Shown: positions 7,398 to 48,619 of the stretch, in pieces
How positions within the stretch are numbered: position 1 is the first letter of the stretch
How the letters are laid out: each line of letters opens with the position of its first letter
DNA from: Candidatus Eiseniibacteriota bacterium
GTDB taxonomy: Bacteria; Eisenbacteria; RBG-16-71-46
DNA: 64,000 nt
Assembly (NCBI GenBank): GCA_041483195.1
Contig: JBGPFC010000002.1
Location: 96,001 to 160,000, forward strand
Reading direction: 5' to 3'
The notes under the pieces: generated by a model
What the model was told of the DNA's origin: nothing
Seen by the model: only the letters and a program-made list of their open reading frames with translations
Databases searched by the model: none
Translations under genes and position numbers: made by a program

Positions 7398-7843
7398 TGG
7401 CGCGCGGGGCGGTGAGGCCGGCGCGCGTCCCGTTCGCCGTGAATCTCGAGCTCAGCCACGGCCGTCACGGCGCGGCGGCGCGGCTCGAGATTCACGAGCG
7501 CGGCGGCGACCGGCTCGCCCTGCTCAAGCTCAGCGGCTGGATCGACCAGGTCGCGGTGCGCCGTCTGGAAGGGACGCTCGCCGAGCTCGCGGAGCGCGGC
7601 ACGAGCCAGCTGCTCCTCGACTGTTCGCAGCTTCGTCACATCGACTACCGGCTGGTGCCGGTGCTGGTCGACGCGCTGTCGCGTTTCGAGACCCACGCCG
7701 GCGGGTTCGTGGTGTGCGGGCTCTCGCACTACCTGCGCGACCTGTTCCGCCTCGCGGGATGCGAGCCGCGGCTGCGCTGCTGGCCCAACGCGGACGAGTT
7801 GCTCGGTCCCGCCCTCGAGCCGGGCCGTGAGCGCGCGTCATGA
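7394..7843 (+). CDS. STAS-domain (anti-sigma-factor antagonist-like) protein
   Basis: 'LLKLSGWID...LLLDCSQLRHID...GGFVVCGLSHYLRDLFRLAG'; overlaps both mraZ and rsmH. Confidence 0.75.
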   Translation: MMARGAVRPARVPFAVNLELSHGRHGAAARLEIHERGGDRLALLKLSGWIDQVAVRRLEGTLAELAERGTSQLLLDCSQLRHIDYRLVPVLVDALSRFETHAGGFVVCGLSHYLRDLFRLAGCEPRLRCWPNADELLGPALEPGRERAS

Positions 7844-33132: not shown

Positions 33133-33160
33133 TCAAGCCGCCGTGAGCCCGCGCCGATAG
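33133..33160 (+). promoter_or_regulatory. Sigma28 (FliA/WhiG)-type promoter upstream of mglA
   Basis: TCAAG-N15-GCCGATAG. Confidence 0.6.
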
Positions 33161-33418
33161 CACTCCCTGTATAGGCAGGCGCCCGGCCAAACGCCAGGTC
33201 AGGCGGATGCGGTCCTCGCCGCCGGCGTCCGCAGGGCGCCAGCAGACGAGAATCGCGGCCCCATCCGATGCGTGAGGATCGTTCGGGCGACGCGTTTCGG
33301 CGCGGAAGCAAATGGACGGTTTGCACCATCCTCAAGGTTCCCGTGGAGAAAGGGCGGCAAGGGGCTCCGTGGGACAAAATCTTGTGACAGGGTGGGGTCG
33401 CTCAGGGAGGAACTCATC

Positions 33419-34699
33419 GTGGTCGTCGTGAGCTATTCGGGCAAGGAGATCAACGCCAAGCTGGTGTACTACGGATGCGGCTTGAGCGGCAAGACCACGA
33501 ATCTCGAATCCATCTACGAGGCGGTGCCGGACACCAGCCGCGGGAAGATGGTGAGCATGAAGACTCAGTCGGATCGAACCCTCTTCTTCGATCTGTTGCC
33601 GCTCGATCTCGGCGAGATCATGGGATTCAAGACGCGATTCCTGCTGTACACCGTGCCGGGCCAGGTCTTCTACAACGCGACCCGCAAGCTGGTGCTGAAG
33701 GGTGCGGACGCCATCGTGTTCGTCGCCGACAGCGAGGTCGGCAAGATGGAGGAGAACAAGGAGAGCCTCGCGAATCTCCGCGCGAACCTCTCGGAATACG
33801 GCCTCAGCCTCGACAACATTCCCTACGTCATTCAGTACAACAAGCGCGATCTGCCAAACGTCTACACGCTCGATGAGCTGAACGCCGAGGTCAATCCGGG
33901 CGGCAAGGTGCCGTTCTTCGAAGCGGTCGCGAAGGACGGACGGGGCGTGTTCGAGACGTTCCGCGGGATCTCGCACCTGCTGATGGAGAAGGTGACGCGG
34001 GACTTGAGGCGCAGCACCGGCGGCGGGCCGGCCCAGCGCCCGGCGGCCGAGATGCCTCCCGAAGCCAGGCCCGAGCTCGCGCATCCCGCCCAGCCGCTCG
34101 CGCCTCCCAACGTGCCCGCGCACCTCGCGGCGCGCGAAATGCCAGAGGCCCCGGCGCTCGCGAGCGGGGTCGATTATGGCCGCGAGATCGAGCTTCCCGG
34201 CGCGCGCGCGGCCGCGGCCCAGGCGGCGCAGGGCGCCGCCACTCCACAGGCCGCGCCCGTCACCTCCGCATTCGCCTCACCCGCGCCGATCGCTTCGGCC
34301 CCGGTCGCGGCCGCTCCGGTTCGCCAGGCCGAGGCCGCTCCGGTCGCGCCTCCGAGACCTCACCAGCCCGAGGTCGCGTCCGCTCCGGCGCCAGCCGCGC
34401 CGGCACGTGGCGCGACTCCGCACCCGAAGGCGGAAAGCGCCTCGCAGCCGGCTGCGAGCGGTCGCTTCGCCGCCGAGAGCGCGCCTCCCGCTCCGCGCCA
34501 CGAGGGCGCGTCGGCCGGAACCGCGACGGCGCACGCCGTGCGCGCGGCCATCGTCGACGCAACCCATCCGGCGTCATCGCCGGCCTCTCCGGGGCTGGCC
34601 CAGCGCATGGATTCCGAGGAGCTCATCGTTCCGATCCGGCTCGGTGTCAAGGGCACGCACGAGATCGTGCTGCGCATCGTGCTCAAGCTCGAGGGCTGA
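33419..34699 (+). CDS. mglA: MglA-family small GTPase with long Pro/Ala-rich C-terminal extension
   Basis: SD GGAGG plus GTG; 'EINAKLVYYGCGLSGKTTNL', 'DRTLFFD', 'LYTVPGQVFY', 'QYNKRDLP'. Confidence 0.9.
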   Translation: MVVVSYSGKEINAKLVYYGCGLSGKTTNLESIYEAVPDTSRGKMVSMKTQSDRTLFFDLLPLDLGEIMGFKTRFLLYTVPGQVFYNATRKLVLKGADAIVFVADSEVGKMEENKESLANLRANLSEYGLSLDNIPYVIQYNKRDLPNVYTLDELNAEVNPGGKVPFFEAVAKDGRGVFETFRGISHLLMEKVTRDLRRSTGGGPAQRPAAEMPPEARPELAHPAQPLAPPNVPAHLAAREMPEAPALASGVDYGREIELPGARAAAAQAAQGAATPQAAPVTSAFASPAPIASAPVAAAPVRQAEAAPVAPPRPHQPEVASAPAPAAPARGATPHPKAESASQPAASGRFAAESAPPAPRHEGASAGTATAHAVRAAIVDATHPASSPASPGLAQRMDSEELIVPIRLGVKGTHEIVLRIVLKLEG

Positions 34700-36150: not shown

Positions 36151-36207
36151 CTAGCGGCGGATCCACCACAGCAGATCGATGTACAACACGATCAGGCCGA
36201 GTTCCAC
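36151..36207 (-). CDS. Unannotated 18-aa hydrophobic peptide MELGLIVLYIDLLWWIRR
   Basis: Perfect SD GGAGGT (36218-13) 5 nt before GTG; GC3-rich codons; upstream sigma28-type promoter. Confidence 0.6.
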   Translation of the reverse strand: MELGLIVLYIDLLWWIRR

Positions 36208-36311
36208 GGTTTACCTCCAACTTCGAGGGTCGCGTTCAAGACGCGGTCAACCGTTCGGATCGGCCGCCCGTGGGTTGGCAGCGCGGGCGGGGGAGGCGGC
36301 GTCCTGCCGTC

Positions 36312-38786
36312 TCACCTCGCAGCTTCGGCAGTCGCGCGATGCAACTTGAGTGCTTTTTGCGTGGCGGGTCCCGCTCCCCGCGCCGGCTCGGTGAGCTGGC
36401 GAAGCACCACCACCGTCAGGTCGTCGAGCGGACGATCGGCGAAGGCGCGCACGGCGGCGAGCAGCGCCTCGAGCACGTCCGCCGCCCGCCTCCCGGGGCA
36501 GGCGTCCAGCACCTCGCGAACCCGGTCGGTCCCGAACAACTCGTCACCGCACTGTGCCTCGGTGAGGCCATCGGTGCAGAGCAGCAGCAGATCTCCGGCT
36601 CCGAGTTCGACCGGCACGTCGGGATAGGTGGCGTCCACGCTCACTCCGAGCAGCACGCCACCATCCGTGAGTTCCTCGAAGCGGCCGTCGCGCCGGCGAA
36701 CCAGCGGCGGGGTGAGGCCCGCGTTCGCGAGCCAGACCCGCCCCCCCCGCACCTCGATGCGCGCGCAGAGGAGTCCCATGAACTTCTCGGGTTGATCGAG
36801 GCCGACCAGCTCGCGATTGAGAACGTCCAGCAGCGCGCCCGGACTCAGCGCGCGCCGCGCTTCGTCGCGGAAGCGCGCCTGCACGCCGGCGAGCACCAGC
36901 GCGGCGGGCACACCCTTCCCGGCCGCGTCACCCACGGCAAGCGTGAAATCGCGGGGCGCGGTCTCCACGAAGTCGTAGTAGTCGCCCCCCACCGACTCGC
37001 ATGAGAGCGTGGCCGCCGCGCAGTCGAGCGTCGGATAGACCGGTGCGCGACGGGGGAGGCGGTGCGCCTGAATGGCGCCGGCCTCGCGCAGCTCGCGCTC
37101 CAGCGCGCCGTGCGAACTGGCTTCGCGCCGCAGCGCGCGATTCTCGAGCGCCACCGCGAGATGGTCGGCGAACCGCTCGAGCTCGCGCGCCTCGAGCTGT
37201 CCGAGCCATGCGCCCGCCAGCCGCCGCCCCAGCAGCAGCAACGCGCGCCGCGGAGACTCGCCGACCGGCACGATCCATCGCACGCCGCCGCGCTCCAGGG
37301 CCATGGCGAGCTCCGCGCCCCCCTCGACCTCGTCGACTCCCACCACGCCGGCGCGATCACCCAGCGCGCGCGCCAGATCGGTTCCACCCGCGGGCAGCGT
37401 CGTTTCCCCGACGTGGCCGGCATCGCGCGCGATCCCGTGCTCGAGCGCCAGCGCCGCGCAACCGTCGAGCCGCAATTCCGCGGCCAGCGTCCCGCATGCC
37501 GTCGAGAGCAGGGGCTCGAGCCCGCCGGGGTGATCCGCACCGCTTCCCACGATCGAAATCACTCCGCTGCTCGCCGGCAACCGCGCACGCAATCCGCGGA
37601 CCCATGCGCTGAGCGGGCCCGCCAGCCCCGCGACCAGCGGAACACTCGCGAGCGCCAGGCCCTCGACCTCCGCGCCCAGTTCGGCGCCGCGGTGCAGGGC
37701 GATCCATTCCCCGCCGAGATACGCGAGCGCGCCCCCCGCGCCGAGCATCAACGCGAGCGAGCCGGCGCGCAGCGCCATCCGGAAATCGAAGATGTGATGA
37801 ACCACCACCGCCCACGCGAACGAAGCCGGCACCAGCAGCGTGAGCATGACCGCCCACCGTTCGCCGGGGACGGCCGTGCCCGGGGAGAGATTGCGGATCA
37901 GGATCAGGGCCGCGAGCGGGCCGGCGCCGAGCACGGTGCCGGCCAGCGCGACGCGCAGACGCCGGCGTTCGTCGGCCGACCGCGCTCGAAAGTAGGATCG
38001 CCCGAAGAGCGCGAGCGCGACGATGAGCCCCAGCGTGAACCACACCGCGGCCGCCACCTGAAGTGCCGCGAATGCCACGTCGGCGCCCGGAAAGGCGCTC
38101 GGTCCCAGCGGCTCGAGGAGCGCGGTCGCAAACAATACCGCAGCGATTCCATAGCCCCATCGAACGCGCGTCTCGAGTCGCCCGCCCCAGCGGGCCGGTT
38201 CTGGGAACATCGCGAAGAAATGGACGAAGAGCGCCGGCAGGAATAGCGTGATGCCCGAGTACGCGGTGCGCCACACGAGCGCGAAGGCCGCCGAACGCAG
38301 CTGGGGGAGCGGCGCGATCAGCCATGCAAACGCGAGGCAGAGCAGGAAGAAGGTGCGCGTGAGCCGGTCGCGCCGCTCGCTCCAAACCAGCCCCGCGAGC
38401 AGCACGAAGCCCGAGCTCACGACCAGCAGCGCCGCGAGCATGCGGCGCTCGGAATCGGGAAGCGGCTCGGCGGCGAGCCAGACCCGATCGCGACGATCCC
38501 CCGCGCGTCGTTCGAGGAGCAGGGGCCGGCCCGGCGCGGCGTCCGCGAGCAGCTCGCGCGCGAGCCACCCTGAATCGGTGGGGCGGCCGGTCGCCGCCAG
38601 GCGGTCGCCCGGCAGTATCCCGGCCCGATCCGCCGGACTTCCGGCGATCACGGCCGCGACACGATCCGACTGGACGATCAGCCCGGTATAAGGCCGGCCG
38701 GGCACGCCAAGGGCCGAGCACGCGAGCACCGAGGCCGCGGGCAAGAGCAGCCAGGCGATCATCCGGGCCGACCATCCGCGATGCAT
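36312..38786 (-). CDS. Membrane PP2C/SpoIIE (RsbU-like) phosphatase: PDZ, multi-TM, GAF-like, SpoIIE
   Basis: PDZ 'GSPADRAGILPGD'; SpoIIE 'VGGDYYD', 'GDAAGKG', 'CTDGL', 'DDLT'; SD GGAGG. Confidence 0.9.
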   Translation of the reverse strand: MHRGWSARMIAWLLLPAASVLACSALGVPGRPYTGLIVQSDRVAAVIAGSPADRAGILPGDRLAATGRPTDSGWLARELLADAAPGRPLLLERRAGDRRDRVWLAAEPLPDSERRMLAALLVVSSGFVLLAGLVWSERRDRLTRTFFLLCLAFAWLIAPLPQLRSAAFALVWRTAYSGITLFLPALFVHFFAMFPEPARWGGRLETRVRWGYGIAAVLFATALLEPLGPSAFPGADVAFAALQVAAAVWFTLGLIVALALFGRSYFRARSADERRRLRVALAGTVLGAGPLAALILIRNLSPGTAVPGERWAVMLTLLVPASFAWAVVVHHIFDFRMALRAGSLALMLGAGGALAYLGGEWIALHRGAELGAEVEGLALASVPLVAGLAGPLSAWVRGLRARLPASSGVISIVGSGADHPGGLEPLLSTACGTLAAELRLDGCAALALEHGIARDAGHVGETTLPAGGTDLARALGDRAGVVGVDEVEGGAELAMALERGGVRWIVPVGESPRRALLLLGRRLAGAWLGQLEARELERFADHLAVALENRALRREASSHGALERELREAGAIQAHRLPRRAPVYPTLDCAAATLSCESVGGDYYDFVETAPRDFTLAVGDAAGKGVPAALVLAGVQARFRDEARRALSPGALLDVLNRELVGLDQPEKFMGLLCARIEVRGGRVWLANAGLTPPLVRRRDGRFEELTDGGVLLGVSVDATYPDVPVELGAGDLLLLCTDGLTEAQCGDELFGTDRVREVLDACPGRRAADVLEALLAAVRAFADRPLDDLTVVVLRQLTEPARGAGPATQKALKLHRATAEAAR
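36322..36349 (-). promoter_or_regulatory. Sigma28-type promoter for the 18-aa peptide gene, inside the last codons of the PP2C gene
   Basis: Minus strand TCAAG-N15-GCCGAAGC, preceded by an A-tract. Confidence 0.55.
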
Positions 38787-38815
38787 CCGTGCCTCCCGGG
38801 TCGAACGGCGGCCCG

Positions 38816-38843
38816 AGGCTAACAGGGCGGCCCCGGCTGTCAA
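38816..38843 (-). promoter_or_regulatory. Sigma70-type promoter for the PP2C gene
   Basis: Minus strand TTGACA-N16-TAGCCT with extended -10 TG. Confidence 0.55.
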
Positions 38844-38858
38844 GATTCACTAGGGGCT

Positions 38859-38887
38859 TTGTAACCGGGCCGGGATGTGGCTATTCT
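38859..38887 (+). promoter_or_regulatory. Sigma70-type promoter for csrA
   Basis: TTGTAA-N17-TATTCT. Confidence 0.5.
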
Positions 38888-38891
38888 CGCC

Positions 38892-38919
38892 TTAAGTGGT
38901 TCAAAGTTCTTGCCGATAC
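38892..38919 (+). promoter_or_regulatory. Sigma28-type promoter for csrA-flgM-like operon
   Basis: TTAAG-N15-GCCGATAC. Confidence 0.7.
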
Positions 38920-38975
38920 GCTGACTGTCCGACGGGTGATTCTCGCCCCGGCACCGGAGCGGAGGAAGCTTCACG

Positions 38976-39230
38976 ATGCTGGTCCTAACAAGGAAGTTAG
39001 GAGAAAACATTCGGATTGGTGACTCGGTGAAGATCACCGTGCTCGAAGTGCGTTCCGGGCAGGTGAAACTCGGAATCGAGGCTCCACCCGAGGTGAAAGT
39101 GCACCGGGAAGAGATTTATGCCCGCATCCAGGAAGAGAATCGGCGCGCACAGCGAACCAAGGTCGGCGGCTCCGAGCCGGCGGCCGCGCCGCGCGACAGC
39201 GAAACGAAGGACCGGCCCGCGCCCGAATGA
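38976..39230 (+). CDS. csrA: Carbon storage regulator CsrA (Asn55 / FliW-type)
   Basis: '[16 protein letters not shown]...[23 protein letters not shown]'. Confidence 0.97.
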
Positions 39231-39309
39231 GTCGGTCGCACGCGATCCGGGGCCGTCGCCGCCGGTGGCGGCGCGGCGAGCCGACAACGACCCCATTTCG
39301 CGAGCCAAC

Positions 39310-39510
39310 ATGAAGTCCATCCGTCCTCCATCTCGCAGTCGTCGTCCGCTGCCCCTGCCGGCGCGGCCGCCGTCGACGGTCTTCGCCGAGCCCATCCGCT
39401 GGCCGAACGTCATGACCGCGAGGGCTCGCATCGCGGTGCAGTTCTACGACCGTCCGGACGTGCGTGCCTCGGTCCTGGCAGCTGTGCTGGACGAGTTGAT
39501 GCGCGAGTAG
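39310..39510 (+). CDS. FlgM-like anti-sigma28 factor (66 aa)
   Basis: Disordered N-half followed by 'IRWPNVMTARARIAVQFYDRPDVRASVLAAVLDEL', matching the FlgM C-terminal 'R..kV...r..I..g.Y......a..l' pattern; sigma28 promoter and csrA context. Confidence 0.55.
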   Translation: MKSIRPPSRSRRPLPLPARPPSTVFAEPIRWPNVMTARARIAVQFYDRPDVRASVLAAVLDELMRE

Positions 39511-39542
39511 AATTCGGGTTCGGTGCTCGATGCCGGCCCGGG

Positions 39543-39582
39543 GCGGGGCGGTCGCGGTGTCCGCGGCCGCCCCGCTTGTTAT
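39543..39582 (+). terminator. Intrinsic terminator after csrA-flgM-like
   Basis: 15-bp GC stem (39543-57 / 39561-75) followed by TTGTTAT; overlaps an extended -10 TGtTATACT (39577-85) for the next gene. Confidence 0.7.
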
Positions 39583-39611
39583 ACTGCGCGCTCCATGAGA
39601 GCCAAGTGTCG

Positions 39612-40814
39612 GTGAGGCGCGGTCGCGTGTCGGTGCTCTCCATCCCGATGGGACCGCTGAGTCGTGCGCTCATGGACGACTCGGACAGCGGCGTGGTGGT
39701 GCTCGATCCCGCGGCACGAGTCGCGAGCATCAATCCGGCCGCGCTGCGTCTGCTCGCCCTTCGTGCCTCGGACGCTCGCGGCCGCCCGCTGAGCGAGCTG
39801 CTCCGCACCGTCGTCGCGAACGACGATCTCGTAGGCGACGCGTTGCGCGCATCGCGCACCGAACGCGAGGCGGTGCTGCTCGCGCGGGATGGAAGCGAGG
39901 TCCCCGCGCTCGTCCGCAGCGTTCGGCTGGGCCGCCCGCCGTGGGTGCTGATCACGCTGCGCGATCTCACGCAGGTCCGGCGCATGCGGGAGGAGCTCCG
40001 CCGCCACGAGCGGCTCGCCACCCTGGGCCAGCTGAGCGCCGGCATCGCGCACGAGATTCGCAATCCGCTCGCGGGCATCGGCACCAGTGCGCAGGTCCTG
40101 TTGCGCCGATTCGAGCCCCGCGACGATCGGGCCAAGTTCGTGCGGGTGATTCTCGAGGAGGTCGCGAGGCTCGACCGGATCGTGACCAGCCTGCTCCAGT
40201 ACGCCCGCCCCCGGACCCCCGAGCTGCGTGCCGGCACGCTCGCGGCCTGCATCGAGCGCGTGCGGGTGCTCGCGAGCGAAACCATCGGCCAGACCGGGGT
40301 GCGGGTGGAAGTCGACGTGGCGCCCCGGCTCGGTCCGGTCTACATTGACTCAGACCTCGTCACGCAGGTGGTGCTGAACATCACGCTGAATGCCGTTCAG
40401 GCGATGCCCCAGGGTGGGACGCTCCGCTACGAGGTGCGCCGCGCGCGTCGTCGTCCGGCGCCGCGCGGGCCCGGACGACGCGCGTCGGACGCGGTGCGCC
40501 CGCCGGGGGGGGCGCGACGAGCCGTCGAGCGCGTGACCTTCCAGCAGGTGCGCGTGAGCGACACGGGGACCGGGATCCCGCGCGGCGTGCTGGCGAAGCT
40601 GTTCGATCCGTTCTTCTCGACCAAGCCCCGGGGCACCGGGCTGGGTCTCTCGATCTCGCAGACCATCATGCAGGAGCACGGTGGGACGATCGAAGTGGCG
40701 AGCCGCGAAGGGCGCGGCACCACCGTCCTGCTCAATTTCCCCGTGGAGAAGCGACATGGTGAAAGGCGACAGCTCGACGCACGTGCAGACCGCGCACACG
40801 CTACTCATCGTTGA
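39612..40814 (+). CDS. Cytoplasmic PAS sensor histidine kinase (NtrB/FleS/FlgS-like); start uncertain (39612/39648/39672)
   Basis: PAS 'SGVVVLD...INPAA', H-box 'AHEIRNPL', 'NAVQAM', 'DTGTGI', 'FFSTKPRGTGLGL'. Confidence 0.92.
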   Translation: MRRGRVSVLSIPMGPLSRALMDDSDSGVVVLDPAARVASINPAALRLLALRASDARGRPLSELLRTVVANDDLVGDALRASRTEREAVLLARDGSEVPALVRSVRLGRPPWVLITLRDLTQVRRMREELRRHERLATLGQLSAGIAHEIRNPLAGIGTSAQVLLRRFEPRDDRAKFVRVILEEVARLDRIVTSLLQYARPRTPELRAGTLAACIERVRVLASETIGQTGVRVEVDVAPRLGPVYIDSDLVTQVVLNITLNAVQAMPQGGTLRYEVRRARRRPAPRGPGRRASDAVRPPGGARRAVERVTFQQVRVSDTGTGIPRGVLAKLFDPFFSTKPRGTGLGLSISQTIMQEHGGTIEVASREGRGTTVLLNFPVEKRHGERRQLDARADRAHATHR

Positions 40815-42189
40815 CGACGAGCGTTCGCTGCGCTTCAGCATCGGGGAATGGGCGCGCGACGCGGGTTACCAGCCGGTCGAGGCCGCAGGGTGCCGCGAGG
40901 CGCTGGAACGCATGCGTGAGCAATCCGTCGATGTCGTGCTGCTCGACCTCAAGCTCGGGGACGAGGACGGCATGGAGGTGCTTCGTGATCTGCGCGCCGA
41001 GGATCCCTCGCTGCCGATCATCATGCTGACCGGGCACGGCACCATCGAGCACGCGGTGCGCGCGACGCGGCTCGGCGCATACGACTTCATGCTCAAGCCT
41101 CCCGATCTGGACCACCTGGGTGTGGTGGTGGCCCGCGCGCTCGAACACTCGCGGCTCCGCCGGGAGGTCGATCGCTTCCGCGCGACCTCTGGCCAGAATC
41201 AGCCCATGATCGGCGAGAGTCCGGGGCTCAAGCGCGTGCTCCAGCGACTCGAGAAGGCGGGCAAGAGCAGCAGCGCGACCGTCCTCATCCAGGGGGAGAC
41301 CGGGGTGGGGAAGGAGCTCATGGCGCAGTTTCTCCACGCTCACAGCCCGCGCGCCGGCGGGCCGTTCATCGAGCTCAATTGCAGCGCGATTCCCGAGCAG
41401 CTTCTCGAGAGCGAGCTCTACGGGCACGAGAAGGGCGCGTTCACCGACGCCAAGCGGTTCAAGAAGGGGCTGTTCGAACTGGCCGACGGCGGCACCCTGT
41501 TTCTCGACGAGATTGGTGAAATGGCGCCCGCGCTCCAATCGAAGCTGCTGCGAGTGCTCGAGAATCGCACCTTCCGCCGCGTGGGCGGACACGCCGACAT
41601 CACGGTCGACGTTCGGGTCGTGGCCGCGACGCACCGCGATCTCAAGCGCGCGGTCAGCGATGGAAAATTCCGGGAGGACCTCTACTTCCGGCTCAACGTC
41701 GTGCCGATCGAAATGCCTCCGTTGCGCGATCGGCAGGAGGACATCCGGGCGCTCGCGGAGCATTTCATCACGCGCTTCTGCCGCGAGCTGGGCCGCCCGG
41801 TCCTGCGACTCCACCCCGAAGCGCTCAGGGGTTTTCACGACTACGCGTGGCCTGGAAACGTTCGCGAGCTGAAGAACGTCATCGAGCGCGTGGTCCTGCT
41901 CGAGGCCGACGACGAGATCCGGCGCGAGCACCTGCCCTCCGAAATCCATCGCACGACCACGCGCGAGACCGCGGCGGGCGCGGCGGCGAGCCCGTTCCCC
42001 CCGGGGGTCGTTCGGCCGCTTGCCGAGATCGAGATGCTGGCGATCGATCACGCGCTGGTCGTGTGCGAGGGTAACAAGACCCGCGCGGCGCACCTGCTCG
42101 GCATCTCGCGCCAGACCCTGAGAACCAAGCTCAAGGAATTCGCCATCGAGGACGATGTTGAAGAGGGTGGCGAGGTGGGCCCCGAGTAG
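40756..42189 (+). CDS. Sigma54-dependent response regulator (REC, AAA+, Fis HTH)
   Basis: 'GETGVGKE', 'ESELYGHEKGAFTDA', 'LFLDEIGE', 'FREDLYFRL', 'WPGNVREL', 'GNKTRAAHLLGISRQTL'. Confidence 0.96.
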   Translation: MVKGDSSTHVQTAHTLLIVDDERSLRFSIGEWARDAGYQPVEAAGCREALERMREQSVDVVLLDLKLGDEDGMEVLRDLRAEDPSLPIIMLTGHGTIEHAVRATRLGAYDFMLKPPDLDHLGVVVARALEHSRLRREVDRFRATSGQNQPMIGESPGLKRVLQRLEKAGKSSSATVLIQGETGVGKELMAQFLHAHSPRAGGPFIELNCSAIPEQLLESELYGHEKGAFTDAKRFKKGLFELADGGTLFLDEIGEMAPALQSKLLRVLENRTFRRVGGHADITVDVRVVAATHRDLKRAVSDGKFREDLYFRLNVVPIEMPPLRDRQEDIRALAEHFITRFCRELGRPVLRLHPEALRGFHDYAWPGNVRELKNVIERVVLLEADDEIRREHLPSEIHRTTTRETAAGAAASPFPPGVVRPLAEIEMLAIDHALVVCEGNKTRAAHLLGISRQTLRTKLKEFAIEDDVEEGGEVGPE

Positions 42190-42499
42190 TTCGCAGCGCC
42201 TCTCCCTGGTCCCGCGGCTCGCGCCGATCTTCCCCCGGCGCCGACCAGGAACCGTTCGTGCGTTCTAGGCGTGCGCAACGAGGTTAGGCGGGCGGAATGC
42301 ATTTCGGAATGCAGTCGGTTCGCGCGTTTCGCCAACTCCGGAGCTGATCCACCCGCCCGGCCGGGTTCGCGCGGTTTCTCGCGCGGCGCCACAAGTCGCT
42401 CTCCCTGAACGGTATGGCCCCGGCCTCACGGGCGCATCGCCGATCCGATCCCGGGCTCGGAATGAGCGCCGGCCGCGTCGTTCGCGCCCTGCCCGAGGC

Positions 42500-42515
42500 T
42501 GGCACGCAGACTGCA
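42500..42515 (+). promoter_or_regulatory. Sigma54 (-24/-12) promoter of the REC-flhG-fliA operon
   Basis: TGGCACG-CAGA-CTGCA with exact GG-N10-GC spacing, 39 nt before ATG 42555. Confidence 0.75.
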
Positions 42516-42554
42516 ACCGGGTTTCCGCGCTGCCACCCACGGAGACCCCTTTCC

Positions 42555-42956
42555 ATGTCCCACATTCTCATCGTCGATGACGAACCCACCACCTCGTGGG
42601 CGCTCGCGGAAGGGCTGTCGGACGACGGCTTCAGCATCGACACCTTTCGCAGCGCCGAAGACGCGTGGGCCTGGCTCCAGGGTGGGCACAGCGACCTCGT
42701 CATCTCCGATCTCCGGCTGCCGGGCATGAGCGGACTCGAACTCGCTCGCAAGCTACGCCGCGGCCGCCACGCGCAACCGGTCATCATCGTGACGGCGTAC
42801 GGCACCCCGGAGACGATCCGCGACCTGCGCGGCGCGGGTGTCGCCGACTGCTTTACCAAGCCGTTCCCGATCGATCGGCTGCGTCGCTCGGTGCGCCTCG
42901 CGCTCGAGGCCGCCGCCCAGCGCGCCCGCCGGCGCCGCAAGGCCGCGGCGTGCTGA
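42555..42956 (+). CDS. Single-domain response regulator (REC)
   Basis: 'ILIVDDE', 'DLVISDLRLPGMSG', 'VTAYG', 'TKPF'. Confidence 0.9.
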   Translation: MSHILIVDDEPTTSWALAEGLSDDGFSIDTFRSAEDAWAWLQGGHSDLVISDLRLPGMSGLELARKLRRGRHAQPVIIVTAYGTPETIRDLRGAGVADCFTKPFPIDRLRRSVRLALEAAAQRARRRRKAAAC

Positions 42957-43291
42957 GCCGCCCCGCCTCGCAACGCGCGCGCGGCCTCAGGCGCGCCCCC
43001 GCGCCGGTGCGCCAGCTCGCGGCGCTCCATTCCGGCCGGGCGCGGATTCGCGCCGCGCTCGAACATTGCGCGGAGCAGGAACGCGCGGTGCTGGCCCTCA
43101 TGTTGTTCGAGCGCCTCACGCCGGCGGAAGCCGCGCAGGCGCTGGGGATGCCGATCACGGATCTGCTGCGCACCTACGACGCGCTGCTCCGCGAGCTGCG
43201 GCGCGCGCTGCGCGGGCTGAGATTCCGATCGAGGCTCACGCAGGACGGCCGCACCCGCACCGCGTCCGAAGCGCGCGTGAGGGAAGCCTGA
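42950..43291 (+). CDS. Stand-alone sigma-70 region-4-like protein resembling the FliA C-terminus
   Basis: 'EQERAVLALMLFERLTPAEAAQALG' versus FliA 'EQERLVVALYYYEHLTLKEIGRALG'. Confidence 0.7.
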   Translation: MLSRPASQRARGLRRAPAPVRQLAALHSGRARIRAALEHCAEQERAVLALMLFERLTPAEAAQALGMPITDLLRTYDALLRELRRALRGLRFRSRLTQDGRTRTASEARVREA

Positions 43292-43563
43292 TGCCGATCC
43301 GGCGGCCTCTGACCCCGAGCGCCGATCCGGCGGGTGAGATCCCGGCGACGTCGGGGGCGCGACTCGATCGCATCGACGCCGCGCTCGTTTCTCTGGGCGC
43401 GGAGCAGCATCGCCTCGAGCGCATCGGCCTCGAAATCCCACTCGCGCGCTGTCATACCCAGAAGCGCTACTGGATGTTCCTGAGGGCGTTGTTCTCGATC
43501 CCGGATGCGAAGCGCTCCACCCCGTGCGGAGGATCACCGTGGCCGAGCGCGACGATTCGCTGA
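43291..43563 (+). CDS. Hypothetical protein (90 aa)
   Basis: TGATG coupling to the upstream gene; helical core 'RLDRIDAALVSL...YWMFLRALF'. Confidence 0.6.
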   Translation: MPIRRPLTPSADPAGEIPATSGARLDRIDAALVSLGAEQHRLERIGLEIPLARCHTQKRYWMFLRALFSIPDAKRSTPCGGSPWPSATIR

Positions 43564-44462
43564 AGCCTTCGAGCCGGGCCGGCGCAAGGCGTCAGCGGCC
43601 GCCGCTGGCCGTGGTCCCCGGGACCGGCCAGCCGGCGGAGTCCGAGGACCATCCCGCGCGGTGGAGCCGCCCGCACGTGCCGATGATCGTCATCGCGAGC
43701 GGGAAGGGCGGGGTGGGCAAGAGCAACCTCTCCGCGAATCTCGCGGTCGCGCTCGGTGAGCGCGGCGCCCGCGTGCTGCTGGTGGACGCCGATTTCTCCC
43801 AGGCCAGCCTCGATCTGCTGCTCGGCCTTCATCCGCGTCACGACCTGCAGCACGTGCTGGCTGGCGAGAAGACCCTCGAGGATATCGTCGTCGAGGGGCC
43901 GTTTGGGGTGAAACTGGTTCCCGCGGCATCCGGGGCGCCCGAACTCGTCGATCTCGACGACGTGCGCCTCGAGTCCCTGCTGCGCGGCCTGTCCCAGCTC
44001 GAGGCCGACATCGACCTCGTGCTCCTCGATACCGCGTCGGGGGTCGGGCGCCAGGTGACTTCGCTCTGCCTGGCGGCCGACGAGGTCGTGGTCGTGACCA
44101 CTCCCGAGATGCCCGCCTTCGCGGATGCGTATGGCCTCATCAAGCTCCTCCAGCACCAGGGGCTCGCGCGTCCGGTGCACCTGCTCGTGAACATGGCGGG
44201 AAGCCCGGAGGAGGCGGAAGAGACCGCGCACCGCATTCGGCTCGTGGCCCGACGCTTCCTGCGCATGCAGCTCGACGTCTGGGAGCCGGTGCCGTTCGAT
44301 CTCGCCATTCCCCGCGCCGTGCGCCGCCAGGAACCCGTGCTGACCGCGTACCCGCAGTCCCCGGCGGCGGCGGCCTATCGGGCGCTTGCCGAGCGTCTCT
44401 GGACCACGCCACCGCCGACGCCGACGATCGAGATTTCACATCCGCAGCGTTTGGAAGCCTGA
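43539..44462 (+). CDS. flhG: MinD/ParA-family ATPase FlhG/FleN
   Basis: 'ASGKGGVGKS', 'VDADF', 'LVPAASG', 'DTASG', 'TTPEMPAFADAYGLIK'; directly upstream of fliA. Confidence 0.88.
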   Translation: MAERDDSLKPSSRAGARRQRPPLAVVPGTGQPAESEDHPARWSRPHVPMIVIASGKGGVGKSNLSANLAVALGERGARVLLVDADFSQASLDLLLGLHPRHDLQHVLAGEKTLEDIVVEGPFGVKLVPAASGAPELVDLDDVRLESLLRGLSQLEADIDLVLLDTASGVGRQVTSLCLAADEVVVVTTPEMPAFADAYGLIKLLQHQGLARPVHLLVNMAGSPEEAEETAHRIRLVARRFLRMQLDVWEPVPFDLAIPRAVRRQEPVLTAYPQSPAAAAYRALAERLWTTPPPTPTIEISHPQRLEA

Positions 44463-44477
44463 GAGGAGGAAGTCCCC

Positions 44478-45302
44478 ATGCCCCGTGCCGCCACCGCGTC
44501 CCCTGCACGTCCGTCCGTTTCCCTTCGCCTGGTGCCTCGCCGCGCCGCACCCGCGACAGCGCCGGGCCTCACCCCCGTGACCTACTCGAAGGACGATCTC
44601 CTCAAGCGGTTCGCGCCGCTGGTGCGTCACGTCGTCGAGCGGGTGGCCGCGACGCTGCCGCGCAACGTCGATCATGAGGATCTCTACTCGGCGGGGGTGC
44701 TCGGCCTGCTCGATGCCCACGCCAAGTTCGACACCCGCAAGGGCGTGAAGTTCGAGACCTACGCGGTGTGGCGGATCAAGGGCGCAGTCCTCGATCAGCT
44801 GCGCGCGCTCGACTGGGTGTCGCGCTCGATGCGACGCAAGGCTCGCAATCTCGACGGCATCACACGCAAGCTCGACCAGAAGCTGGGACGCGCGGCGTCC
44901 GAGGACGAGGTCGCGCGCGAGATGAAGATGACGCGTGGCGAATTCTATCGGTTGCTCGATCACGTTCGGGGAGCGGTGCTGGTCTCGCTCGACGAGAGCC
45001 GTTCGGGCGAGGAGCAGGAACCCACCACGCTCGCCGACCATCTGCCCGATCCCAACGCCGCCGACGTCGAGGCCCGGCTCGAGGAAGAGCAGACGCATCA
45101 CGTGATGCTCAAGACCCTCGATCAGCTTCCCGAGCAGGAGCGGCTGGTGGTGGCGCTCTACTACTACGAGCACCTCACGCTCAAGGAAATCGGCAGAGCC
45201 CTGGGCATCTCGGAATCGCGCGTCTCCCAGGTTCACACGCGCGCCATGATGCGGCTGCGTCTCCGGCTGCAGAAGGCCCTGGCGCAGGAGCGGGCGGCGT
45301 GA
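44478..45302 (+). CDS. fliA: FliA/WhiG-family RNA polymerase sigma28
   Basis: 'LPRNVDHEDL.SAGVLGL', 'KFETYAVWRIKGAVLDQLRALDWVSRS', 'LYYYEHLTLKEIG..LGISESRVSQVH'. Confidence 0.95.
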   Translation: MPRAATASPARPSVSLRLVPRRAAPATAPGLTPVTYSKDDLLKRFAPLVRHVVERVAATLPRNVDHEDLYSAGVLGLLDAHAKFDTRKGVKFETYAVWRIKGAVLDQLRALDWVSRSMRRKARNLDGITRKLDQKLGRAASEDEVAREMKMTRGEFYRLLDHVRGAVLVSLDESRSGEEQEPTTLADHLPDPNAADVEARLEEEQTHHVMLKTLDQLPEQERLVVALYYYEHLTLKEIGRALGISESRVSQVHTRAMMRLRLRLQKALAQERAA

Positions 45303-45700
45303 CGCAGCCGGAGACCGCGGAGCCGCTGCTGCCGCCGCCGCCCCACGAGGCGATGATCGAGCGCATGCTCGAGCACGCGCACGCGATCGAGGCGGCGGGC
45401 AAGCCCGAGCACGCGGCCGCCCTCAGGTCTTCACTCGAGGGCTGGCGGCGGGCGCAGCAGGATTGGATTGAGCGCCTCGCGCGGGCGCTCGCGGTCCACC
45501 ACGAGATCAACAACGCGCTGGTCGGCGTGCGGGGCAACGCACAGCTGCTGCTGATGGGTCCGGCGGGCAAACAGCCGGGCGTGAGAGAGCGTCTGGAGGT
45601 CGTGATCCGTGAATCCAAGCGCATCCAGGAAGCCGCCGGGAGAATTCGCGAGATCAAGGCCGCGATCGGCGGCGCGGACCCGGCCTCCCGTGCCGCCTGA
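45299..45700 (+). CDS. Stand-alone HisKA/DHp phospho-acceptor protein (no ATPase domain)
   Basis: GTGA overlap with fliA; H-box 'HHEINNALVGVRGNAQLL...RLEVV..ESKRI'. Confidence 0.7.
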   Translation: MTQPETAEPLLPPPPHEAMIERMLEHAHAIEAAGKPEHAAALRSSLEGWRRAQQDWIERLARALAVHHEINNALVGVRGNAQLLLMGPAGKQPGVRERLEVVIRESKRIQEAAGRIREIKAAIGGADPASRAA

Positions 45701-46670
45701 CGCCGGCCGGGCCTCCGGGCCCGACGCCACGAGCCGCCGGGCGGATGGCGCGACCGCGGTCTCGGGAACGCCGGGCGGCGAAGCGATCGCGCGTCGCCGC
45801 GCCTCGCGTTCGCTGTGGGCGGCATGCGAGGCGCTGCTCACGGCCGCGTCCGAGCCGCGTGCTGTGAATCGTGCGCTCGACGCGCTGCGCGTCGCGTTCG
45901 AGTGTGACGGCGTCGCGATCCACGCGCTGGGGCCGGAGGGCGCGATGGAGCCGCTGTGCGCGCGCGGAGAATGGCGTGTCGCTCCCGGCGACCTGCGCGA
46001 CTGCGTGAGCGTGCCGCTGATGCGCGGCGCGGAACGGGTCGGCGCCCTCGAGCTGCTCGCGCGGCCGGGCCAGCACTGGCGCCCGGCGCAAATCGGCCTG
46101 GTGCGAACCGCATCCGGCGCGCTGGGTGCCGCGCTCGGCGTTCGTCTCGAGCTCCAGCGCCTGCGCCACCAGCCGGGTCGTGACGGCGTCACCGGGCTGC
46201 CCGACGCGCGAGCTTTTCACGCGCGGCTTCACGAGGAACTCGCTCGCGCGCGCCGCCATGGATTGCCGCTCGCGGTCGTCATGGTCGACATCGATCGTTT
46301 TGCCGCACTCAATTCGCGCTACGGGCGCGCCGTCGGCGATGCGGTGCTCGCCGAGACGGCGCTGCTGCTGCGGCTGACCTTGCGCGAGACCGACGTGCTC
46401 GCGCGCCTCGGGGGCGATCGCTTCGGAATCGTGCTCCCGGAGTGCGACGTACCGGCCGCGGCACGCTGCGCCGAGCGGGTACGGCGCATCGTGGAGGAGC
46501 ACGAATTCGCCCGCGTCGGCCGCGTCAGCGCCTCGGCGGGCGTGGCGGTCAGTCCCCGGGACGGGATGGAACTGGTCGAGATCATGAATCGCCTCGACCA
46601 CGCGATCGCGATCGCCAAGAAGTCGGGACGCAGGCGGGTCGCCGTGGCCGGACAGACGCACACCCACTGA
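45690..46670 (+). CDS. GAF-like plus degenerate GGDEF (GGDRF) protein
   Basis: 'DGVTGLP', 'DIDRF', 'RETDVLARLGGDRF', 'AKKSGR'; start approximate. Confidence 0.85.
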   Translation: MPPDAGRASGPDATSRRADGATAVSGTPGGEAIARRRASRSLWAACEALLTAASEPRAVNRALDALRVAFECDGVAIHALGPEGAMEPLCARGEWRVAPGDLRDCVSVPLMRGAERVGALELLARPGQHWRPAQIGLVRTASGALGAALGVRLELQRLRHQPGRDGVTGLPDARAFHARLHEELARARRHGLPLAVVMVDIDRFAALNSRYGRAVGDAVLAETALLLRLTLRETDVLARLGGDRFGIVLPECDVPAAARCAERVRRIVEEHEFARVGRVSASAGVAVSPRDGMELVEIMNRLDHAIAIAKKSGRRRVAVAGQTHTH

Positions 46671-46687
46671 GAGCGGCGGAGGCCGGA

Positions 46688-48619
46688 ATGAGACCGAAGC
46701 CGCACGCGCCGGCCCACGAGCCCGGAGCCTCGGGCACGAGGGCCGCGCCGTCGCCGCCCGCGATCGTCTCGCGCAGCGGGCTCGCGGCCGCCTCGAACCC
46801 GGCTGACGTGTCGGAAGCACCCGTGGGTCTCGCCCGGGCCGGATCGGTGGGGGTCGCCGGCGACGCTCCGGCGCTCGCGTTCGGAAGCGGGGCGGATGCG
46901 CCCGGTACCCTGCCCGAGACGGAAATCGAAACGCGGGCGCGCGTGCTGGTGGTGGACGATGAGCCATCGGTCGTCGACGTGCTTCGCGAATTTCTCTCGG
47001 GTGAGGGTTACGAAGTCTCCGTGGCCTCGAGCGGGGAAGAGGCGCTCCGGCTGATTCCGGAGCTGCGGCCGGACATCATCCTGACCGACATCAATCTGCC
47101 TGGACTGTCGGGACTCGAGGTCATGCGCTTCGCGAAGAGCGTCGATCCCGAGGTCGCGGTGATCGTGGTGACCGGCTACGCGTCCGCTTCCACCGCCATC
47201 GATGCGCTCCGTCAAGGCGCGTACGACTACGTCACCAAGCCATTCGATCTCGACGACGTCCATCAAATCGTCGAGCGCGGCGTCGCGAACCGGCGCCTGA
47301 AGGCCATCAATCGCCGCCTGGTCGAGGAGCTGAGGCAGAAGAACGCGATCCTCCAGCGCCACGAACAGGAGCTGCGCGAACGCGTTCGGCTCGCGACCTG
47401 GCAGATGACCACCCTCTACGAGGTCGGCAAGGAAGTCGGCGCCAACCTCGAGCTCGCCCCGCGTCTCGCCCTCATCTGTTCCAAGGCCGCGGAATTGTCC
47501 GGCGCGCCGTCGGCGCTCGTCTACTTGAGAAATACCGAGACCGAGCGCCTTCACGTGGACGCGGCCCACGGGGTCGAGATCACGGACAGCGAGGATACCC
47601 TTCCGCACTATCTGCAGGCCGAGAGCGCGCTCGGCATCAGCGCTTCGGATCCGCGCCCGGCCCGTCGCGCGGTCGGCGACGGGGAGCCGGCGATGGAGTT
47701 GCCGTCTCTGGCCGGCCACCCGGTGCGCAACATGCTGGCGGTGCCGATGATCGCCGAGTCGCAGACCCTGGGCGTGCTGGTCCTGATGAACAAGCCGGGC
47801 GGATTCAGCGACGACGACGAGAGTTTCCTCGCCCAGTACGCCTCACAGGTCGCGATCGCCGTGCACAACTCGCAGTTGTTCGAACACACGAAGAGCCTCG
47901 ACCGCCTCAAGTCCGAATTCGTGGCGGTGGTGTCCCACGAGATCCGCACCCCCCTGACCTCGGTCAAGGGCGCCGTGGAATTGCTCGCGGACGATCGGTA
48001 CTTTCCCAACACCGAGCAGCAGACGAAGCTCCTCACCATCGCGCACGCGAATGCGGAGCGGCTGCTGGTGCTCATCAACGACATCCTGGATTTCTCGAAG
48101 CTCGAATCGGCGTCGCTGCCGATGAGCATCCAGCGCCAGCGCATCGAGCCGGTCGTCCATCAGGCGGCGCACAACCTGCGCACCATGATGGAGGAGCGCC
48201 GCATTCATCTCGAGGTGCTGCTCTCGCCCGAGATGCCCGATCTCATGCTCGACGCGAATCGAGTCGCGCAGGTCCTGACCAATCTGCTCTCGAACGCCAC
48301 CAAGTTTTCCCAGTCCGGCGGGCGCATCGAGATCACCGCGGAGCCCTGGGAGGGCGTCGTGCGGGTCGGCGTGCGCGATCACGGCGAGGGCATCGCGCCT
48401 CAGGATCTTCCGAAGCTGTTCCGCAAGTTCTCGCAGGTGGACTCTTCGGCGACGCGCAAGGCGGGTGGGACGGGACTCGGCCTGGTCATCTGCAAGGGCA
48501 TCGTCGAGCAGCACGGCGGAAAGATCTGGGTGGAGAGCACCCCGGGGCAGGGCAGCACGTTCTACTTCACGCTGCCGCTCGCCGAGCGACTCGCCGCCCC
48601 CGCGATCCCGCAGGCCTGA
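46688..48619 (+). CDS. Hybrid histidine kinase REC-GAF-HisKA-HATPase
   Basis: 'VLVVDDE...TDINLPG...KPF', 'VSHEIRTPLT', 'NLLSNATKF', 'DHGEGI', 'GTGLGL'; start uncertain (46688 or 46808). Confidence 0.93.
   Translation: MRPKPHAPAHEPGASGTRAAPSPPAIVSRSGLAAASNPADVSEAPVGLARAGSVGVAGDAPALAFGSGADAPGTLPETEIETRARVLVVDDEPSVVDVLREFLSGEGYEVSVASSGEEALRLIPELRPDIILTDINLPGLSGLEVMRFAKSVDPEVAVIVVTGYASASTAIDALRQGAYDYVTKPFDLDDVHQIVERGVANRRLKAINRRLVEELRQKNAILQRHEQELRERVRLATWQMTTLYEVGKEVGANLELAPRLALICSKAAELSGAPSALVYLRNTETERLHVDAAHGVEITDSEDTLPHYLQAESALGISASDPRPARRAVGDGEPAMELPSLAGHPVRNMLAVPMIAESQTLGVLVLMNKPGGFSDDDESFLAQYASQVAIAVHNSQLFEHTKSLDRLKSEFVAVVSHEIRTPLTSVKGAVELLADDRYFPNTEQQTKLLTIAHANAERLLVLINDILDFSKLESASLPMSIQRQRIEPVVHQAAHNLRTMMEERRIHLEVLLSPEMPDLMLDANRVAQVLTNLLSNATKFSQSGGRIEITAEPWEGVVRVGVRDHGEGIAPQDLPKLFRKFSQVDSSATRKAGGTGLGLVICKGIVEQHGGKIWVESTPGQGSTFYFTLPLAERLAAPAIPQA

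Follow-up and report, generated by a model that had tools for sequence, protein, structure and literature searches.

Within a 64-kb window (the 64,000 nucleotides analysed here, on contig JBGPFC010000002.1 of assembly GCA_041483195.1) of a Candidatus Eisenbacteria metagenome-assembled genome (MAG), an island of regulatory genes extends from 36.3 to 48.6 kb that looks like the control layer of a flagellar hierarchy standing on its own (Table 1). csrA comes first, followed by a gene for a FlgM-like anti-sigma28 candidate, a PAS-type sensor kinase and an NtrC-type sigma54 activator; after 365 nt of intergenic sequence that include a -24/-12 promoter follow a single-domain receiver protein (REC), a protein that resembles region 4 of sigma factors only (sigma4-only), a conserved 90-aa protein, an FlhG-like ATPase, the sigma28 factor FliA, a protein made up of a DHp domain (DHp-only), a protein with a degenerate GGDEF motif (GGDRF) and a REC-GAF kinase. 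A PP2C phosphatase gene is divergent from csrA, and its position is kept in relatives. All genes that an initial annotation, made from the DNA letters, had named here are present at or near the positions proposed there. Our analysis suggests that the island is probably what remains of an ancestral flagellar supercluster, kept as a working sigma54-to-sigma28 cascade with non-flagellar outputs.

The genome that holds the window (G000) has 4.17 Mb in 93 contigs and is 96.84% complete and 0.04% contaminated. Because G+C makes up about 71% of the window, gene picking relied on the G+C bias at third codon positions, followed by comparison with Pfam and NCBIfam. The true start of the sigma54 activator is probably downstream of 40681 and that of the REC-GAF kinase probably after 46670. 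The activator combines REC, a Sigma54_activat AAA+ domain and HTH_8 in a genome that encodes RpoN and has the -24/-12 promoter, as expected of the NtrC type. By Pfam, the island FliA has all three of Sigma70_r2, r3 and r4, and it is the sole FliA/WhiG-family sigma factor above the cut-off in G000. The small open reading frames (ORFs) of the island are conserved as proteins across genera: HisKA is matched by 20 of 21 orthologues of the DHp-only protein, and the 90-aa family, none of whose 16 members matches Pfam and which found nothing in a profile search of the PDB, has orthologues nonetheless.

Table 1 Features of the island and its surroundings, with positions counted within the window
Feature	Position	Strand	Evidence or remark
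Sigma28-type promoter TCAAG-N15-GCCGATAG	33133..33160	+	22.4 bits (position weight matrix)
MglA-domain protein, 475-aa ORF	33272..34699	+	residues 52-241 are MglA
SpoIIE/PP2C phosphatase, 843 aa	36312..38843	-	Pfam SpoIIE 132.6 bits
Sigma28-type promoter TTAAG-N15-GCCGATAC	38893..38919	+	23 bits
csrA	38976..39230	+	Pfam CsrA 91.2 bits; NCBIfam NF002469 97.3 bits (cut-off 73)
FlgM-like anti-sigma28 candidate, 66 aa, start uncertain	39310..39510	+	conserved C-terminal block in orthologues
PAS-HisKA-HATPase sensor kinase	39576..40814	+	Pfam
NtrC-type sigma54 activator, REC-AAA+-HTH_8	40681..42189	+	Sigma54_activat 234.9 bits
Conserved upstream block	42240..42302	+	invariant columns in nine-genus alignment, about 200-260 nt 5' of the sigma54 promoter
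Sigma54 -24/-12 promoter TGGCACGCAGACTGCA	42500..42515	+	40 nt before REC start
Single-domain response regulator REC	42555..42956	+	Response_reg 92.9 bits
Sigma4-only protein, 113 aa	42950..43291	+	profile matches to sigma region 4
Conserved 90-aa protein, no family	43291..43563	+	16 orthologues, mean column identity 51%
MinD/FlhG-like ATPase, start uncertain	43524..44462	+	ParA, AAA_31, CbiA
FliA/WhiG-family sigma28	44478..45302	+	TIGR02479 248.2 bits (cut-off 189.6)
DHp-only (HisKA) protein, 115 aa	45353..45700	+	HisKA 31.6 bits (cut-off 26.9)
GAF-like + degenerate GGDEF (GGDRF) protein, start uncertain	45609..46670	+	GGDEF 125.8 bits
REC-GAF-HisKA-HATPase kinase	46442..48619	+	Pfam; orthologue 3' of fliA in f2
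Wzi	54938-56527		flank of island beyond the REC-GAF kinase
ValRS	56748-59387		flank of island beyond Wzi

Does the genome hold a flagellum elsewhere? The initial annotation had noted that the window lacks flagellar genes, and this absence extends to the whole genome. Pfam searches of all of G000 gave no match to FHIPEP, Flagellin_N, Flg_bb_rod, FliG_C or FliW, with the control search for each family positive in the expected model organisms, and the best match to FlhF reached 79.6 bits against a cut-off of 174.15, the level of generic GTPases of the signal recognition particle type. A full flagellar gene set elsewhere in G000, which would have spoken against the interpretation given by the initial annotation, was looked for and not found. 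FlhA and flagellin are likewise absent from three genomes of the same genus, and from the single-contig chromosome G016.

Where the island came from is indicated by 41 related genomes, including G000 (families are labelled f1, f2 and so on). FliA is found in 40 of them, FlhA in 9 and flagellin in 11, and all 22 island-type loci fetched (from f1, f3, f4 and f5) are syntenic. The sister family f2 is flagellated; its single FliA shares 56% identity with that of the island. In the f2 genome G025, of which about 90 kb were annotated, the genes form one supercluster that, beyond the divergent PP2C gene, lies on one strand: flgF, flgG, flgA, flgI, flgJ-like, flgN, flgK, flgL, fliW and csrA; glycosyltransferases, flagellin, fliS, fliD, flaG, FlgM, HDOD, PAS kinase, activator and cheR; REC, sigma4-only, TPR, fliF, G, H, I, J, flgD, flgE and flbD; motA, motB, fliL, fliM, fliO, P, R, flhB, flhA, flhF, flhG and fliA; and finally two unknown ORFs, HDOD, GAF-GGDEF, REC-GAF kinase, Wzi and valyl-tRNA synthetase (ValRS). 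About 40 flagellar structural genes stand between the regulators of the f2 locus. In the window, these regulators follow one another in unchanged order, flanked as in f2 by PP2C at one end and by Wzi and ValRS at the other, and the site that holds the structural genes in f2 is contiguous sequence here, with none of them in it. Because regulators, order and flanks agree, the island can be described as an f2-type supercluster minus its structural genes.

This relationship is mirrored by the sigma factor itself. In a tree of 100 rows (LG+G4, quick search, support by the approximate likelihood ratio test SH-aLRT), the island FliAs of f1, f3, f4 and f5 form one clade with the f2 FliA and six further representatives (SH-aLRT 99). 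With the f2 synteny and the lack of any flagellar gene among 66 predicted targets (see below), this bears out the suggestion of the initial annotation that the circuit was kept and rewired. The best 120 database matches of the island FliA are Eisenbacteria orthologues, all at least 76% identical. In f1, FlhA is found in six genomes, and precisely these six carry a second FliA: one copy is the island orthologue (74–86% identical), the other is 36–39% identical. The second copy adjoins a MinD-type gene, flhF and flhA, in clusters of the order flhA-flhF-flhG-fliA-flgEFG...flgA-flgI-flgK (L030, L033, L035, L041 and L043), with the island also kept in these genomes; the second copies fall into a separate clade (SH-aLRT 100) among other representatives, far from the native Eisenbacteria clade, and are either an old paralogue or the result of horizontal transfer.

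Across the phylum, tallied over 153 Eisenbacteria genomes that are each at least 85% complete (the unpublished G026 is included in tallies only), FliA occurs in 146, FlhA in 53 and FliA without FlhA in 96; three of the seven genomes without FliA have FlhA. The state of FliA without FlhA covers all sampled members of f3 (6) and f17 (5) and 29 of 30 in f18. The circuit had been called self-contained; in the sense of unique it is not, being the majority state of the phylum. In three genomes, G022, G043 and G070, flhA was matched in two or three separate pieces (in G022, a single-contig chromosome, at C1:1690443-1692397), which looks like flagellar clusters in decay.

The -24/-12 promoter in front of REC belongs to only 12 sites in G000 with at most one mismatch to TGGCACG-N4-TTGCA. 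Its TGGCAC...TGCA letters are invariant in nine of nine genera, in a spacer between activator and REC that is otherwise 52% identical on average, and REC was mapped in 20 loci of relatives, 18 of which have a site with up to two mismatches directly 5' of this gene, L044 and L048 being the two without it. The conserved block further upstream is a candidate binding site for the activator, judging by its invariant columns. Four f3 loci (L047, L048, L049 and L056) show an extra -24/-12 site, directly 5' of the MinD/FlhG-like gene.

The second promoter type emerged from the genome as a whole. Among 222 GCCGATA heptamers in G000, about 40 beyond background have T, A, A and G at -20, -18, -17 and -16. 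The motif can be written TCAAG-N15-GCCGATAA, and an iterated position weight matrix (PWM) has the consensus TCAAG-N15-GCCGATAAc. The classical sigma28 promoter type is TAAA-N15-GCCGATAA; the genome-wide motif fits this type, and we infer that the island FliA recognises it. At a threshold of 19 bits, 56 PWM sites were found in G000, of which 46 are in promoter position, defined as -120 to +300 of the start of a gene on the same strand, a placement shared by 14.8% of 20,000 random positions. The site before csrA is the 47th; it was missed in the count of 46 because csrA is too short for the gene caller. The reversed PWM gave two sites, none in promoter position, and shifting the -35 block by 1–8 nt left 1–8 sites, with 0–4 in promoter position. 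With one mismatch allowed, the same 28-nt pattern outnumbers its backwards control in three relatives without flagellar genes (36 against 2 in G013, 37 against 4 in G016 and 13 against 4 in G028).

What does this predicted regulon contain? Pfam annotation of the 66 proteins 3' of the 46 sites in G000 revealed no flagellar or chemotaxis family. The predicted targets include at least eight histidine kinases, mostly hybrid and with GAF or PAS domains, three SpoIIE/PP2C phosphatases, two HD_5 (HD-GYP-type) proteins, a PhoH / 7TM-HD / YbeY operon, four HEAT-repeat proteins and two AAA_22-SPOR proteins, together with glycosyltransferases, an acyltransferase, a GHL15/CBM protein, two TonB-dependent receptors, an RlpA-like protein, an M48 peptidase, LemA/GIDE, an accB operon with a PilT-like ATPase, and lptC-lptB-rpoN. 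Genes 3' of 17 of the sites in these three relatives encode REC-PP2C, HEAT, accB, GHL15/CBM and GAF kinase proteins and, in f3, a PilB-like ATPase, so that GHL15/CBM, accB, HEAT, PP2C and GAF kinases are target classes shared across genomes. In flagellated relatives, sigma28-like motifs precede some flagellin genes (G022, G004, G012 and G025) and were not seen before flagellin in G020, G027 and G008.

Three predicted outputs bear on the island itself or on its neighbourhood. The -10 element of the site before csrA ends 57 nt before the csrA start, and a site of at least 16 bits precedes csrA in 14 of the 16 relatives' loci that have this gene (it is missing in L038 and L053). A 26.9-bit site stands before lptC-lptB-rpoN on contig C2 of G000 (221701-223703), where rpoN is cut by the contig end; a weaker site, CCCGATAA, is found on C41 (4282-7211), 6 nt before the gene upstream of a full-length rpoN, and C2 and C41 represent either two separate rpoN loci or a single one that was divided by the assembly. 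The initial annotation had listed mglA as a sigma28 output, which is borne out as a promoter prediction: the site lies 113 nt 5' of the longest start of the ORF, whose MglA domain matches the Thermus (E 1.3e-72) and Myxococcus (E 3e-70) MglA structures in the PDB. About 230 residues of this ORF belong to no family, the G022 orthologue aligns over 66% of it, and the ORF is either an MglA fusion or hides a missed downstream gene. An 18-bit sigma28-like site, TCAAG...GCCGAAGC (36291-36323, minus strand), below the 19-bit threshold, lies at the 3' end of the PP2C gene, facing trpA. No further site was seen near the island, and this one may be the promoter of the micropeptide that the initial annotation had listed among the sigma28 outputs.

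In 15 orthologues of the anti-sigma candidate the conserved C-terminal block reads RW.RV..A.ARIA.GYYDR.DV...L.DAVL.EL; Pfam FlgM matches three of them weakly (best E 0.007), a Pfam FlgM search of the whole of G000 gave a single match of E = 0.4 elsewhere than in the island, and a PDB profile search with the window's ORF produced only chance-level matches. The positional orthologue in f2 passes Pfam FlgM with 28 bits against a cut-off of 25, and tblastn against a small database aligns the window protein with it (40.6% identity, E 1e-5). The earlier designation as FlgM-like has the caveat that the window's copy itself fails the Pfam cut-off. A model of the FlgM-like/FliA complex, with both chains given as alignments, scored 0.74, compared with 0.03 for the best of three controls; 116 of 157 solved complexes and 2 of 215 mismatched pairs attain the mark that it passes. 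At least 60% of contacts are shared between runs, the partner has a predicted local confidence (pLDDT) of at least 62, and the predicted interface joins residues 27–66 of the FlgM-like protein to residues 207–264 of FliA, in region 4. The model supports binding of the FlgM-like protein to FliA region 4, as a prediction that may lean on solved FliA-FlgM structures. Because the genome has no export gate (FHIPEP), release of this protein must differ from export.

The sigma4-only profile matches region 4 of SigF, FliA and WhiG in the PDB (E 6e-9 to 4e-7), and hhalign places the protein on FliA residues 202–266 with a probability of 96.8%. It thus spans exactly the FliA surface predicted to be held by the FlgM-like protein, and competition with FliA for the FlgM-like protein is therefore conceivable. 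Since the sigma4-only protein is also found in flagellated f2, it is not an invention of lineages without flagella.

Some changes in the remaining members accompany the flagellar loss. The island ATPase has an invariant deviant Walker A motif (SGKGGVGKS), is encoded directly before fliA and is 51–54% identical to the f2 FlhG beside flhF. The N-terminal DQAxxLR element of FlhG activates FlhF. This element is not present in the island copies of the ATPase, which share another conserved element, HPA.WSRP; the flagellar copy of G004 has MKDQAQGLRE. The gene annotated as flhG is that of a MinD-family ATPase which is orthologous to FlhG by position and lacks the DQAxxLR element seen in the flagellar copy. 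The C-termini of three regulators attract attention as well: 20 of 21 DHp-only orthologues (loci L028-L056) end in Ala-Ala, that of L048 in Gly-Ala, sigma4-only C-termini are mostly R(K/R)AS, and those of the ATPase RL(E/Q/S)A. A C-terminal Ala-Ala resembles ssrA-like ClpXP degrons, and because of this likeness proteolytic control is conceivable; the DHp-only, sigma4-only and ATPase proteins may be regulated in this way.

The GGDRF motif of the window's GGDEF-type protein departs from the GG(D/E)EF of active cyclases. Of the 16 f1 genomes, 15 have a degenerate active-site motif, with G024 as the exception, and all 16 have the RxxD motif five residues upstream; the f2 and f4 proteins are canonical, with GGEEF or GGDEF. 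Because the active site is degenerate while RxxD is kept, the sequences suggest a receptor for cyclic di-GMP (c-di-GMP) rather than a cyclase. For CsrA, the partner FliW was not found in a whole-genome search of G000, and in f2 fliW lies directly before csrA. The CsrA-FliW module is described in the accessible part of PMC13443453, which also reports that Eisenbacteria CsrAs were mostly predicted to be non-functional in a Bacillus subtilis flagellin assay.

Upstream of the island, the window contains an ordinary division and cell-wall cluster (7394-28311) with mraW, ftsI, murE, mraY, a murC-type ligase, ftsA and ftsZ, at whose 5' side a STAS-domain gene is located (7394-7843); a TPR protein and recG follow the cluster, still ahead of the island. 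The 23 public runs that hold G000-type DNA are sediment or groundwater DNA metagenomes, with no RNA run among those listed.

Taken together, we read the island as the regulatory skeleton of an ancestral flagellar supercluster that works as a sigma54-to-sigma28 cascade with non-flagellar outputs, and we give this reading a probability of roughly 0.72. The structural genes would have been deleted in place and the regulators kept in order. The PAS kinase would phosphorylate the NtrC-type activator, which would then fire the conserved -24/-12 promoter to produce a transcript for REC, sigma4-only, the 90-aa ORF, the FlhG-like ATPase, FliA, DHp-only, the GGDRF protein and the REC-GAF kinase. FliA would direct RNA polymerase to about 47 promoters of the TCAAG-N15-GCCGATAA type, with kinases, PP2Cs, HD-GYPs, envelope and polysaccharide genes, the mglA-domain gene and lptC-lptB-rpoN as predicted outputs. 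Judging from gene spacing, the sigma28 promoter on the csrA side may drive csrA, the FlgM-like gene, the kinase and the activator together; such co-transcription would create a positive sigma28-sigma54-sigma28 loop that also makes its own anti-sigma factor, and the site at lptC-lptB-rpoN would bring sigma54 itself into the loop. How the grip of the FlgM-like protein on FliA region 4 might be released without export is a matter of speculation: proteolysis could do it, or competition with the sigma4-only protein, or phosphorylation or c-di-GMP inputs through REC, DHp, PP2C and the GGDRF protein. One elaborate version, which we regard as rather unlikely, is that a partner switch assembled from genes of the cluster itself took over the release of FliA. 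It would be a split PhyR-like mimicry switch in which the sigma4-only protein would imitate FliA region 4 and compete for the FlgM-like protein, as set by phosphorylation and c-di-GMP. It is a similarly long shot that phosphorylation would enter this switch via REC, DHp-only, the kinases and PP2C, and c-di-GMP at the retained I-site of the GGDEF protein; that the switch would sit within the sigma28-to-sigma54-to-sigma28 positive loop including rpoN is equally tentative.

Several points weigh against the reading of the island as a retained cascade. All evidence for it is computational. The gene calls come from a crude third-position G+C method, and with overlaps among the longest ORFs the starts of several genes are uncertain. 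As the genome used to train the PWM is also the one in which it counts, the number of sites is partly circular; this training does not affect where the sites lie relative to genes, nor the counts in relatives. GAFTGA is the loop by which enhancer-binding proteins contact sigma54, and the island activators have GAFTDA in 20 of 20 orthologues (at residue 252 of the longest ORF in the window), compared with GAFTGA in both f2 activators. The window's FlgM-like ORF matches no Pfam family, FlgM (PF04316) included, and because FliA-FlgM complexes have already been solved, the pass of the complex model shows likeness, not proof of binding. The FliA tree, finally, is a quick LG+G4 tree with SH-aLRT as its only support and is unrooted, the loss rather than gain of structural genes is argued from parsimony, and an f2-like layout in other flagellated families was judged only from FliA lying 3–5 kb from FlhA in a few genomes.

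Could the cascade still serve motility of another kind? Type IV pili or gliding polarity, run through MglA and PilB/PilT-type ATPases with all other outputs secondary, would be in keeping with the sigma28 site before the MglA-domain gene, with a PilT-like T2SSE gene in a sigma28-preceded operon of G000 and a PilB-like T2SSE+MshEN gene 3' of a motif match in the f3 genome G028, and with type IV pili among the predicted WhiG outputs in the accessible part of PMC13595943. However, related proteins make up only 2 of the 66 annotated downstream proteins in G000, and the targets are mostly kinases, phosphatases, HD-GYP proteins and envelope genes, so we consider this explanation unlikely. A different emphasis would have c-di-GMP as the chief gate of sigma28, in the style of WhiG2-RsiG, acting through the GGDRF or the FlgM-like protein, with sigma54 as a supply line. 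A GGDEF gene lies 3' of fliA in all families examined, the f1 pattern of a degenerate active site (15/16) with RxxD kept (16/16) next to canonical f2 and f4 proteins fits a sensor, two HD-GYP-type genes are among the predicted sigma28 targets, and there are precedents in the available portions of PMC13595943 and PMC8325347. Yet the FlgM-like ORF has no recognised c-di-GMP motif, and no RsiG-like protein was identified, though no search aimed at RsiG was made; we judge such a gate distinctly unlikely as the main control.

The two remaining explanations fare worse. In favour of the island being a functionless, decaying relic of recent flagellar loss is the split flhA of G022, G043 and G070: because some clusters look broken in this way, flagellar loss appears to be ongoing in the phylum. 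A relic is nevertheless very improbable for an island that is intact and syntenic across at least four families, whose small ORFs are conserved at the protein level and whose sigma54 and sigma28 promoters are kept inside diverged intergenic DNA, all the more as FliA without FlhA is found in 96 of 153 genomes and the motif is enriched at promoter positions. That flagellar genes exist and were missed by metagenomic binning could be suspected from the 93 contigs and the 3% of marker genes that are missing; with six independent flagellar markers all absent, the f2 structural-gene site contiguous and empty in the window, and three genomes of the same genus as well as the single-contig G016 also lacking FlhA and flagellin, we regard this as extremely improbable.

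Next, we would like to place the retained cascade into the context of known systems. In polar flagellates, FlgSR/FleSR with sigma54 act first, then FlhF/FlhG and then FliA-FlgM. The island shares with this hierarchy the kinase and sigma54 activator, the MinD-type ATPase before fliA, the anti-sigma factor and CsrA; unlike it, the island has no FlhF, FliW, export gate or flagellin, its ATPase lacks DQAxxLR, its activator loop is GAFTDA and its outputs are non-flagellar. PhyR-NepR-sigma EcfG is a partner switch that uses a sigma-like domain, and PhyR sigma-like domains are among the PDB matches of the sigma4-only profile. In both systems a domain that resembles a sigma factor without being one is encoded next to a receiver domain, and an anti-sigma factor (here a candidate) takes part; unlike in PhyR, REC and sigma4-only are separate genes here, and the latter comprises region 4 alone. 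Chlamydial sigma28 is a further case for comparison.

The closest parallels are found where FliA-type sigma factors have left the flagellum. In Actinomycetota, as far as the accessible part of PMC13595943 goes, WhiG1 occurs with a flagellar cluster and WhiG2 is under RsiG and c-di-GMP, with diverse predicted outputs. There as here, within that portion of the source, the predicted outputs of a FliA/WhiG sigma factor lie outside the flagellum, in a phylum with both flagellated and non-flagellated members; some genomes hold copies of both kinds, whose promoter motifs appear to be similar, and there is a tie to c-di-GMP genes. Against what is described for WhiG2 in that part, the Eisenbacteria non-flagellar copy is the orthologue of the FliA that sister families have in their flagellar cluster, it still has beside it CsrA, the FlgM-like protein, the sigma54 two-component system and the FlhG-like ATPase, its upstream control is by a sigma54 promoter, and it belongs to a different phylum. 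In Legionella oakridgensis, according to the available sections of PMC5655016, FliA and FlgM are functional without a flagellar regulon or basal body, and relief from FlgM must occur without export, with proteolysis proposed. Both cases keep FliA and FlgM (here a FlgM-like candidate), with FlgM expression sigma28-dependent (there; predicted here) and relief that has to do without export. In that account only FliA and FlgM are left in L. oakridgensis, whereas about twelve regulators remain in their original order in most of the Eisenbacteria phylum, with a much larger predicted regulon. Non-flagellar retention of FliA as such is already known from WhiG2 and L. oakridgensis; what is new here is the whole control layer in order at its original locus, with the sigma54 step kept and with a prevalence across the phylum. 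No description of the island was found among the papers listed by literature searches on Eisenbacteria and on FliA in non-flagellated bacteria.

The Eisenbacteria have been called one of the most poorly characterised phyla (10.1101/2025.11.25.690425, in its accessible part), and the cascade would be the first regulatory model for them. It is also a warning that predictions of motility from MAGs are misled by labels like 'sigma factor for flagellar operon' in databases. More broadly, these bacteria offer a natural experiment on what a flagellar hierarchy does besides building flagella, and they make three questions directly testable: the relief of FlgM where secretion is missing, the function of FlhG in a genome that lacks FlhF, and that of CsrA once FliW and flagellin are gone. 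The ordered retention of about twelve regulators, under apparent selection, across most of the phylum implies that an essential role outside the flagellum belonged to the cascade from the start or was soon acquired by it.

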